Shown: positions 1 through 1,852 of the stretch, piece after piece
Numbering within the stretch: the first letter of the stretch is position 1
Layout: each line of letters begins with the position of its first letter
Assembly: GCA_035536655.1 (NCBI GenBank)
Contig: DATLNR010000134.1
Span: forward strand, 34,846-98,845
DNA length: 64,000 nt
Origin: Casimicrobiaceae bacterium
Lineage (GTDB): Bacteria > Pseudomonadota > Gammaproteobacteria > Burkholderiales > Casimicrobiaceae
Direction of reading: 5' to 3'
Notes under the pieces: generated by a model
The model's database searches: none
What the model was told of the DNA's origin: nothing
Seen by the model: the letters and a program-made list of their open reading frames with translations, nothing else
Made by a program: the position numbers and the translations under genes

Positions 1-218
1 CCGTAGCGACCGAAATGGCCGCGCGCGTCGGGCAGGTCGTATGAAAGGTCGTCAGTCGCGCCGGGCCACCCCAAGCGGCTGACTGCGCCCCCTTGGGGGC
101 GGCGAGCAACGGGAGCGTGTGGGTCTCTCGTCAGTTCCGCCGGGCCGTCCCAAGGAACTGACTGCGCCCCCTCGGGGGGCAGCGAGCGACGCGAGCGTGG
201 GGGTCGTTTATCAGACAT
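1..218 (-). CDS. trpB: Tryptophan synthase beta chain, 5' part (runs off window), with a repeat-derived N-terminal extension
   Basis: Not in the ORF track. Manual translation from ATG at 218 (overlapping the trpF 3' end) is open to the edge: MSDKRPPRSRRSLPPEGAQSVPWDGPAELTRDPHAPVARRPQGGAVSRLGWPGATDDLSYDLPDARGHFGRYG. YDLPDARGHFGxYG is the typical betaproteobacterial TrpB N-terminus, and the gene follows trpF. Alternative start: TTG at 74. Confidence 0.88.
   Translation of the reverse strand, partial: MSDKRPPRSRRSLPPEGAQSVPWDGPAELTRDPHAPVARRPQGGAVSRLGWPGATDDLSYDLPDARGHFGRY
51..125. repeat. Palindromic REP-like element, copy 1
   Basis: gtcagtcgc(51-59)-g-ccgggccaccccaa-gcggctgac(75-83)-tgcgcccccttgggggcggcgagcaacgggagcgtgtgggtc; same architecture as copies 2 and 3. 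Confidence 0.85.
131..208. repeat. Palindromic REP-like element, copy 2
   Basis: tcagttcc(131-138)-gccgggccgtcccaa-ggaactga(154-161)-ctgcgccccctcggggggcagcgagcgacgcgagcgtgggggtcgtt. Confidence 0.85.
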
Positions 219-855
219 CTGCATTGCGCACTTCCCGGATGAACGCATCGACCTTCTGCGCGTCCTTGATGCCGGCCATCGGCCGGCCATTCGCATCGCG
301 CGCCTCGACGCCGCTCGACACATCGACGCCCCATGGCCGCGTCGCGCGAATCGCGGCCGCGACGTTAGCCGCGTTCAAGCCGCCCGATAGCACAACCGGA
401 CGCTCGAGCGTCGAGGGCAGCCGCGACCAATCGAAGGTCCGACCGGTGCCACCGGGTCGACCTTCCGCCGGCGGCGCGTCGAACAGCCATGCGGCAGCAT
501 CGCCATAGGAAGCGAGCGATTCTAGCAAACGGCCGCTTTGGTCGACGGCGAACGCCTTGAGGTAGCGACGGCCGAACGACCGGCACAGCGCAGGCGATTC
601 GTGGCCGTGGAACTGCAACACGTCGAGCGGCACGCGATCGAGCACGGCGCGCACTTCTTCCGCCGTTGGATCGACGAACAAGCCGACGATCGAAACGAGC
701 GGCGGCAATTCGTCGGCGATCGATCGCGCGCGCTCGATGTCGATGCGCCGCGGCGTTCCGGGCCAGAACACGAAGCCGATCGCGTCGGCGCCGGCTCGTG
801 CCGCGGCAATGCCGTCGTCGAGCCGCGTGATGCCGCAGATCTTGATTCGCGTCAC
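211..855 (-). CDS. trpF: Phosphoribosylanthranilate isomerase
   Basis: RIKICGIT, ADAIGFVF, LQFHG, VLSGGL and GVDVSSGVE motifs; lies between truA and trpB. Confidence 0.97.
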   Translation of the reverse strand: MTRIKICGITRLDDGIAAARAGADAIGFVFWPGTPRRIDIERARSIADELPPLVSIVGLFVDPTAEEVRAVLDRVPLDVLQFHGHESPALCRSFGRRYLKAFAVDQSGRLLESLASYGDAAAWLFDAPPAEGRPGGTGRTFDWSRLPSTLERPVVLSGGLNAANVAAAIRATRPWGVDVSSGVEARDANGRPMAGIKDAQKVDAFIREVRNADV

Positions 856-1001
856 GTCAGTCGCGCAGGGCGTGGCGCGAGCAGCCGGCGAGGGGCCCCA
901 CGCGTTGTCTCTGCGCGAGGATCGCGGCGTGGAAAGTCCAAACGCAAGGTCGACACGAGATGGCGGAATCGCCAGCTCACTGCCACTGTCCGTCCGAAGC
1001 C

Positions 1002-1066
1002 AGCCGCCCCAAGCGACTGACTGCGCCCCCCAGGGGGCAGCGACCGACGGGAGGGTGGGGGTCGTT
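1002..1066. repeat. Palindromic REP-like element, copy 3 (its 5' arm lies at 856-864)
   Basis: agccgccccaagcgactgactgcgccccccagggggcagcgaccgacgggagggtgggggtcgtt; gcgactgac (1013-1021) is the exact reverse complement of gtcagtcgc (856-864). Confidence 0.8.
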
Positions 1067-1069
1067 CAC

Positions 1070-1852
1070 CTAGAACGCAGGAACGTCACGACGCGTCGGC
1101 GGCAACGCGAAGCGATCGTCGTAATCCGCGCCGGTGAAGTACAGCCCGTGCGCCGGAAACGTCGCCGGTCCGCGCGTTCGATCACGCGCGTCGAGCAGCT
1201 CGCGCAGCGATGCAATCGATTTGGCGCCGGCGCCGATCGGGATCAGCGCGCCGATCATGTTGCGGATCATGTGATGCAGGAAGCCGTCGGCCGAGAAGTC
1301 GAAACGGATCAGATCGTGCTGCAGAGCGCAGACTCGCGCGACATGTAGCGTTCGCACCGGCGTCTTCGCCTGACACTCGGCGGCGCGAAACGAGCTGAAA
1401 TCGTGCTCACCGTTGACGCCGTCAAGGGCTCGTTGCATGGCCTCGACGTCGAGCGGCCGATGGTACCAGCCGACGCGTCCCGCGTTTAAGGCCGGCCGTT
1501 CGCCACGCATCAGCAGGAGATAGCTGTAATGACGGGCGCGTGCAGCGAACCGGGCGTGAAACTCGTCGATGGCAAGTGCAGCCCACAGGACGGCGATCGT
1601 CGGCGGCAGCATCGCATTGACACCTCGTACCCATGCTTGCAGCGGTCGCGAAGCCGACGTGTCGAAGTGCACGATCTGCGATGTCGCATGCACGCCGGCA
1701 TCGGTGCGACCCGCCGCCGACACGCGAACCGCTTGACCTGCGATCGACGCGATCGCACGTTCGAGCGCGTCCTGCACGGCGCAGCCGTCGGGCTGCGACT
1801 GGAAACCGCAGAAGTCGCGGCCATCGTATTCGACGGCAAGGGCGTAGCGCAT
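1070..1852 (-). CDS. truA: tRNA pseudouridine(38-40) synthase
   Basis: MRYALAVEYDG...GFQSQ, AGRTDAGVHA catalytic motif, HDFSSFRAAECQAK, FLHHMIRN. Start trimmed from the 2083 ORF start. Confidence 0.97.
   Translation of the reverse strand: MRYALAVEYDGRDFCGFQSQPDGCAVQDALERAIASIAGQAVRVSAAGRTDAGVHATSQIVHFDTSASRPLQAWVRGVNAMLPPTIAVLWAALAIDEFHARFAARARHYSYLLLMRGERPALNAGRVGWYHRPLDVEAMQRALDGVNGEHDFSSFRAAECQAKTPVRTLHVARVCALQHDLIRFDFSADGFLHHMIRNMIGALIPIGAGAKSIASLRELLDARDRTRGPATFPAHGLYFTGADYDDRFALPPTRRDVPAF

Follow-up and report, generated by a model that had tools for sequence, protein, structure and literature searches.

The trpB gene of a Casimicrobiaceae bacterium carries, within its first codons, two head-to-tail copies of the Beta-proteobacterial repeat element (BRE), a dispersed hairpin-forming repeat. 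The pair is in frame, and we consider it likely that the native start is read through it, giving a TrpB with a 54-residue N-terminal extension. The locus is a well-documented pair of filled and empty sites: a mobile hairpin repeat can become part of the very beginning of the coding sequence of an essential biosynthetic enzyme and be retained.

We analysed a stretch of 64,000 nucleotides, hereafter the window (contig C134:34846-98845), from an assembly of 181 contigs and 3.84 Mb. The gene order on the minus strand is truA, trpF, trpB, and the window begins inside trpB (Table 1). The crude codon-usage gene finder that we built recovered trpB, trpF, truA and their neighbours correctly. It called trpF at 211..858, and this gene was also in the list of open reading frames. 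When the contig is followed beyond the window, trpB read from ATG 218 encodes an intact TrpB of 451 aa, including the conserved YDLPDARGHFG core, and trpA, accD and folC are intact directly 3' of it. A search with the TrpB core found a single trpB in the genome.

Table 1. Features at the 5' end of trpB and at the adjacent trpF and truA-trpF junction (window coordinates).
Feature	Position	Strand	Basis or remarks
Resumption of native trpB as (D)DLSYDLPDARGHFGRYG	1..50	(-)	Gene exits the window; codon-usage signal from 41
BRE unit 1, 79 nt, GAGAGACCCACACGC...GCGACTGAC	51..129	(-)	nhmmer and blastn matches; family alignment
In-frame TTG	72..74	(-)	In hairpin-2 loop of BRE unit 1; sole canonical alternative start before the core
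BRE unit 2, 83 nt, GATAAACGACCCCCACGC...GGAACTGAC	130..212	(-)	nhmmer C134:35053-34980, E=1.4e-18; family alignment
trpF (phosphoribosylanthranilate isomerase)	211..855	(-)	GTG 855 to TGA 213-211, then TAA
ATG-2, start taken by the sequence-only reading	216..218	(-)	Overlaps trpF stop, reading ATGTCTGA
ATG-1, probable native trpB start	222..224	(-)	MQMSD...; in frame with ATG 218
SD-like GGGAAG	236-231	(-)	6 nt upstream of ATG 224
Third BRE copy	856..1069	(-)	Between truA stop (TAG 1072-1070) and trpF GTG (855-853)

An earlier sequence-only reading of this DNA had started TrpB at ATG 218-216 and noted its overlap with the trpF stop (TGA 213-211, ATGTCTGA), which is indeed there. It had also stated that no other in-frame ATG precedes the conserved core. 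This is true downstream, where the sequence from 216 to the core has neither ATG nor GTG in frame, but it missed a further in-frame ATG upstream (224-222). The latter is the more likely native start, because the congeners have an AAGGAG/GGAAG box 6 nt before the equivalent first ATG/GTG of 'ATGCAGATG' (one of them, L004, has the ATG-1 start only). From either ATG, the frame is open across both repeat units into DDLSYDLPDARGHFGRYGG, and the peptides quoted in that reading were reproduced exactly.

The insert has 162 nt, i.e., 54 codons (212..51, with a 2-nt register ambiguity), which confirms the in-frame insert seen earlier and corrects its size from about 50 residues. It lies exactly between codon 3 (codon 5 if counted from ATG 224) and the conserved motif, with the junctions ...GCAGATGTCT|GATAAACGACC...(162 nt)...GCGACTGAC|GACCTTTCATACGACCTGCCC. 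What had been described as two palindromic repeats are two repeat units, although each is a directional element of ~80 nt with two hairpins, and they are arranged head to tail. The units are ~83% identical to each other, with different hairpin arms. As the same reading had seen, they are translated in different phases and neither holds a stop: the translation of unit 2 gives KRPPRS... and that of unit 1 gives DPHAP.... Unit 2, whose hairpin-2 arms are at 162-154 and 138-130, has ATA where the family has its 5' ATG. Unit 1 is also devoid of the 5' ATG and has GAGAGACC in place of GATGAACGACC. Its hairpin-1 loop has 2 nt, against 3 nt in most copies, and owing to this missing nucleotide its terminal TGA falls into another frame. 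The final CTGAC of the array is followed by neither ATG nor GTG, and thus by no restart codon.

A stop-free passage through such an array is not improbable, because 55-86% of the combinations of BRE unit and phase are free of stops; selection on an essential operon gene would remove insertions that are out of frame or carry stops. The codon usage across the insert resembles that of non-coding DNA, as expected for any recent insert. The 58-residue extension had no match among 5.8 billion proteins, the exact TrpF protein had no record in public assemblies, and an Rfam scan of window positions 1-1200 gave no model matching the repeat. The only match of the scan, below threshold, was to the Burkholderia sRNA ncS037, within trpF (window 676-823, minus strand), whose score of 23 bits against a gathering threshold of 112 (E=0.25) is most likely due to chance.

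The TrpB core served as query against 30 related genomes; 29 of them have trpB, and from these we retrieved the trpF-trpB junction. The site at the start of trpB was empty in all 18 congeners and in all 11 more distant relatives with the locus, e.g., in the form ATGTCT|GACCTC.... The congeners, which represent 18 species, have a short native TrpB N-terminus starting on the trpF stop. The junctions of two of them are ...GCGGATGTCTGACCTCCCCTACAACCTTCCCGAC (L002, MSDLPYNLPD) and ...GCAGATGTCTGATCTTCCCTATCGACTTCCC (L003), and both keep the ATGTCTGA overlap. They thus read ATGTCTGA-CCTCCC and ATGTCTGA-TCTTCC, respectively, i.e., MSDLPY.LPD..., where the present genome has MSD, 54 residues and DLSYDLPD. 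Hence, the insertion is recent and in frame. The alignment of these junctions, which had been suggested as a check, therefore bears out the proposal that a dispersed repeat entered the 5' end of trpB in frame.

The N-terminus of TrpB seems an accommodating place for such an event. Solved TrpBs start aligning at query residue 60-62, and 0 to ~20 residues precede the motif in them, e.g., in 1X1Q. The N-termini of the congeners vary by ~10 residues. These two observations indicate that this end of the protein is tolerant to changes in length. The rest of the gene is unremarkable: trpB is 83-86% identical to its congeners, which is the range found among the congeners themselves.

We propose that two head-to-tail BRE units entered trpB after the species split from its sequenced congeners, leaving the native start codon, the ribosome-binding site and the overlap with the trpF stop untouched. 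With intact start signals and no stop, ribosomes should initiate as before and read straight through the insert. The product would be an otherwise normal TrpB with 54 extra residues after MSD (or MQMSD). This segment is rich in Pro, Arg, Gly and Ala and, judging from its composition, is probably disordered. The extension is predicted to be translated, with the long form as the main product, and the variable length of the TrpB N-terminus may be the reason why this form is tolerated. The insert can be explained without an adaptive role.

The repeat was identified as a BRE by comparison with published elements. BRE were named by Hot et al. 2011 (BMC Genomics 12:207, PMC3110155), who described elements of 75-91 bp, with partial copies of 40-60 bp, in Bordetella, Polaromonas, Delftia, Acidovorax and other genera. 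Our profile, built from this genome only, aligned over model positions 1-68 of 75 with the BREs of B. pertussis and B. bronchiseptica (List S1 of PMC3110155), in which the three conserved blocks occur in the same order. The score against the Bordetella BRE was 21.1 bits, and the best of 2000 shuffles reached 3.7 bits. The near-full-length alignment, the order of the blocks and these scores identify the element as a BRE. The two groups share the collinear blocks CCCCCACGCT / GCTGCCCCCCRAGGGGGC / TTGGG(G)CGGCCCG, a dispersed distribution and head-to-tail arrays, and the units at trpB (83 and 79 nt) fit the published length. They differ in their hairpin arms, which are CAGTCAGTNGC / GCNACTGAC in this lineage and runs of T/A in Bordetella, and in their abundance, with ~148 copies here against a published maximum of 29.

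In the sense of the genes, the unit starts with (G)ATG-AACGACCCCCACGCT, followed by a short variable hairpin. Then come hairpin 1, GCTGCCCCC-nnn-GGGGGCGC, and hairpin 2, CAGTCAGTnGC-TTGGGRCGGCCCKGC-GCnACTGAC. The stem of hairpin 2 is kept by compensatory changes; one of its column pairs is CG in 16 copies, GC in 10 and UA in 7. Full copies in the genome have 70-95 nt. An iterated nhmmer profile found 148 copies at 143 loci, five of which are tandem pairs in one orientation. A strict pattern had 38 matches in the genome and none with the reversed control. The same pattern was present in 37 of the 61 genomes of the genus. It was also found in Polaromonas, Hydrogenophaga, Acidovorax, Variovorax, Curvibacter, Rubrivivax, Rhodocyclaceae, Sulfuritalea, Zoogloea, Azoarcus, Castellaniella, a Bordetella MAG, Burkholderia guangdongensis and Casimicrobiaceae MAGs.

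Most copies are intergenic, as revealed by the genome-wide search that the sequence-only reading had called for: 15 of the 148 overlap a predicted coding sequence by more than 30 nt, and about a dozen of the 143 loci are coding. Between co-directional genes the orientation is strongly biased, with 85 of the 148 copies in sense and 23 in antisense. In other taxa, 37 copies with genes on both sides are in sense and nine in antisense. The 5' end of the BRE is usually 0-12 nt from the stop of the upstream gene, and the ATG/GTG of the downstream gene commonly follows CTGAC at 0-3 nt. Matched flanks had at least 4 nt in common in 16 copies, where shuffled pairings gave 11.3 +/- 2.2. These counts are no more than suggestive, and support for duplication of a target (ATGA/GTGA) is weak.

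This arrangement encloses a small open reading frame. From its 5' ATG, the BRE typically encodes a mini-ORF of ~26 codons, e.g., MNDPHARFARCPQRGRSQLLGAARRN*, whose stop is either the TGA within aCTGAc or part of an ATGA that overlaps the following start. We took the 64 arrays of this genome with a sense gene start within 45 nt and recorded stops within -40..+3 of that start. The frame of the ATG stopped beside the next start in 45 of them, and the two other frames in 3 and 19. In other named betaproteobacterial genomes, the corresponding numbers were 44 of 57 arrays, 3 and 10. Family members read the core in any of its three phases (MKRPPRS..., M.PHA..., MAPTL...), which shows that the sequence of the peptide is not what is conserved. 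We also considered selection on unit length modulo three. Apart from the two master lengths, 78 and 90 nt counted from ATG to TGA, nine of the 25 copies were in frame, as chance predicts; with no excess of multiples of three, the keeping of frame within this genome may reflect inheritance from the master copies. The test across taxa (44 of 57) is stronger evidence for the mini-ORF than the lengths in this genome. We found no description of the mini-ORF and its stop/restart layout in the BRE literature (Hot et al. 2011; Delihas 2011).

Of 60 such units, 28 have an SD-like GGGAGG in the 3' arm of hairpin 2, 4-16 nt upstream of the next start, and the predicted fold pairs it with an internal CCTCCC in 22 of these 28. 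In a BRE subfamily of Comamonadaceae and Rhodocyclaceae (L065, L081, L126, L135, L128 and others), the 3' hairpin arm is GGGAGGCC, and TGATG or CATG comes next. There the arm itself supplies the SD box and the start codon of the next gene, and the box is paired to an internal GGCCTCCC. In another subfamily, of which there are few members, the arms are GCGCTCAT and the opposite strand carries an ATG...TGA of its own.

BRE appears to be organised so that its insertion between cistrons keeps translation flowing, by means of the mini-ORF and, in some subfamilies, of a masked ribosome-binding site. Whether BRE is more than a tolerated repeat and acts as a 'translational relay' cassette across the class seems to us evenly balanced. 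Such a cassette would lodge on stop/start junctions and start codons, begin with an ATG and stay open for ~26 codons in whichever phase this ATG sets, the peptide being irrelevant. The stop of the mini-ORF would then fall within a few bases of the start of the next gene, and in a large subfamily the masked GGGAGG would be exposed only by a ribosome translating the mini-ORF. The trpB array, with ATA in place of ATG, its stops in other frames and no restart codon, would be a natural 'failed relay' that survived solely by being an in-frame fusion. If true, the relay would explain how ~150 copies of a repeat can be harmless inside operons, and BRE would constitute a compact natural coupling module.

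BRE within genes have been known from Betaproteobacteria since 2011, both as internal copies and as extensions of the 5' or 3' end (PMC3110155; PMC3184786). Delihas 2011 counted them among the repeats that form in-frame fusions, whether internal or at either gene end, and remarked on about nine genes with internal BRE inserts (PMC3184786). A literature search of limited reach found no BRE papers later than 2011, and the element has been barely studied since then. What is new here is the trpB site, a rare obligatory N-terminal fusion made of a double unit, and additional quantitative support for the relay layout.

Other genes of this genome are read through BRE copies. The S-adenosylhomocysteine hydrolase AhcY contains one in frame (contig C162:38550-38632) and is ~31 residues longer at this point than the B. 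pseudomallei structure 3D64. The alignment breaks at query 131-163, against two residues in the solved chain, and the insert is flanked by ...IFEWSDH and ...NMILDDGGDAT. Copies also lie within the span of Pfam domains in two AMP-dependent ligases, in GluQRS and in a FAD monooxygenase (three of these four in antisense). In at least five genes, GlyQ and an ABC ATPase among them, the frame crosses a BRE and ends at a stop further on. A second obligatory N-terminal fusion occurs in a beta-eliminating lyase of the threonine-aldolase type (contig C100:19988-21127), the one array besides trpB without a restart codon. It reads MGADAPIK-[BRE 26 aa]-VQFASDNNAGICPE, has no restart codon after the unit, and its Pfam domain starts at residue 36, directly after the BRE-coded segment. 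Internal copies cannot be bypassed, so peptides encoded by BRE are evidently tolerated in this organism.

These observations allow the explanations of the trpB insert to be weighed. The pair might serve as an untranslated, leader-like spacer, with TrpB starting at TTG 74 and gaining only ~10 residues. A spacer followed by a fresh start codon is what most BRE copies provide (the mini-ORF stops beside the next start in the 45 of 64 arrays given above), TTG 74 is in frame with TrpB, and the non-coding codon usage of the insert fits an untranslated segment. Yet ribosomes starting at ATG 224 or 218 meet no stop before TTG 74 and would read through anyway. The ATG/GTG that directly follows CTGAC in nearly all other copies is absent at trpB. 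The TTG itself lies in a hairpin loop, and the nearest and only SD-like run, AAGGGGG, ends 12-13 nt upstream, paired in the stem of hairpin 1. We thus regard the spacer as unlikely, even if TTG 74 could be a minor or even the major start. As the stop-next-to-restart layout is missing in this copy, only an in-frame fusion could keep the essential operon gene working. It is considerably less probable that the assembly is at fault and that the true junction has another number of units, with no real fusion. The assembly is fragmented into 181 contigs, and BRE arrays in Bordetella are variable-number tandem repeats. Against this, two units ~83% identical with unlike hairpin arms make collapse or duplication by the assembler unlikely, both flanks of the insert are syntenic with the relatives, and the frame is exactly preserved.

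The sequence-only reading had also suggested that the repeat tunes translation through its structure. In this case the insert would be adaptive, its hairpins setting the translation of trpB relative to trpF or its extra peptide having a function. The stems of the family are indeed maintained by compensatory changes, and BRE in many taxa appears built to pass ribosomes between cistrons. At trpB, however, the fold of the 186-nt repeat region is no more stable than that of shuffled sequences (z = -1.8), which gives no reason to postulate a special regulatory structure here. The insert is missing from all 18 congeners, and indeed from every relative examined, and its peptide is read in two arbitrary phases in a family that uses all three and conserves no peptide sequence. 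Tuning by structure thus found no support, and adaptation in either form is highly improbable. Decay of trpB is harder still to credit: an interrupted native N-terminus might mark a pseudogene, but the reading frame is full length and stop-free, matches solved TrpBs from end to end and belongs to the only trpB in the genome. Its identity to the congeners equals that among them, trpF and trpA on either side are intact, and we saw neither an elevated dN/dS nor a loss of catalytic residues in the alignment with solved TrpBs. We therefore retain the in-frame fusion read from the native start. Gene callers will over-extend or truncate genes of this kind, and such fusions bear on the origin of disordered protein tails.

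REP elements are single imperfect palindromes that measure 20-40 nt, have a conserved tetranucleotide at the 5' end and alternate in orientation within their BIME clusters; they are associated with a RAYT gene (a Y1 transposase) flanked by the repeats. Like them, BRE are GC-rich hairpin repeats at the ends of genes whose stems are kept by compensatory change, but they have ~80 nt and two hairpins, are directional, and occur in tandem in one orientation. We inspected by eye the genes lying between oppositely oriented BRE pairs at two of three loci; their products look like housekeeping proteins, an ABC-type permease and a ZipA-like protein, and there was no RAYT among them. The repeats of Rickettsia known as RPE (Ogata et al. 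2000, via PMC3184786) form hairpins and are found in frame in housekeeping genes without destroying the protein. The analogy with RPE drawn by the sequence-only reading is apt as a description of the behaviour of the element, with in-frame insertions adding a peptide segment in TrpB, AhcY and others here. RPE are set apart by host class and size (105-146 bp, PMC3184786, versus 79-83 nt here), and most BRE copies in this genome are intergenic, not inside genes. MIRU (Supply et al. 1997, via PMC3184786) are units of 40-100 bp in intercistronic spacers of operons, head to tail and in variable number, and their small ORFs overlap, at the two ends, the stop and the start codon of the neighbouring genes (PMC3184786). 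The BRE family is likewise intercistronic and co-oriented with transcription, with a unit ORF abutting the flanking stop and start. MIRU belong to another phylum and presumably differ in sequence, so we do not claim common descent. The trpB array itself departs from this pattern, being a fusion without the stop/restart layout.

A third BRE copy lies just upstream, between truA and trpF. It has ~130 extra nt in the loop of hairpin 2 and GTGA on both flanks. Its 3' CTGAC abuts the GTG of trpF, and its GTG-started mini-ORF stops early, in the extra DNA. In most congeners this junction has 8-30 nt (up to 73 nt). Two of them have it filled independently: in one (L004, congener G004) it holds an antisense BRE, also split by ~110 extra nt, and in the other (L007, congener G003) a different palindromic element of 160 nt. 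The truA-trpF junction thus looks like a hot spot of insertion.
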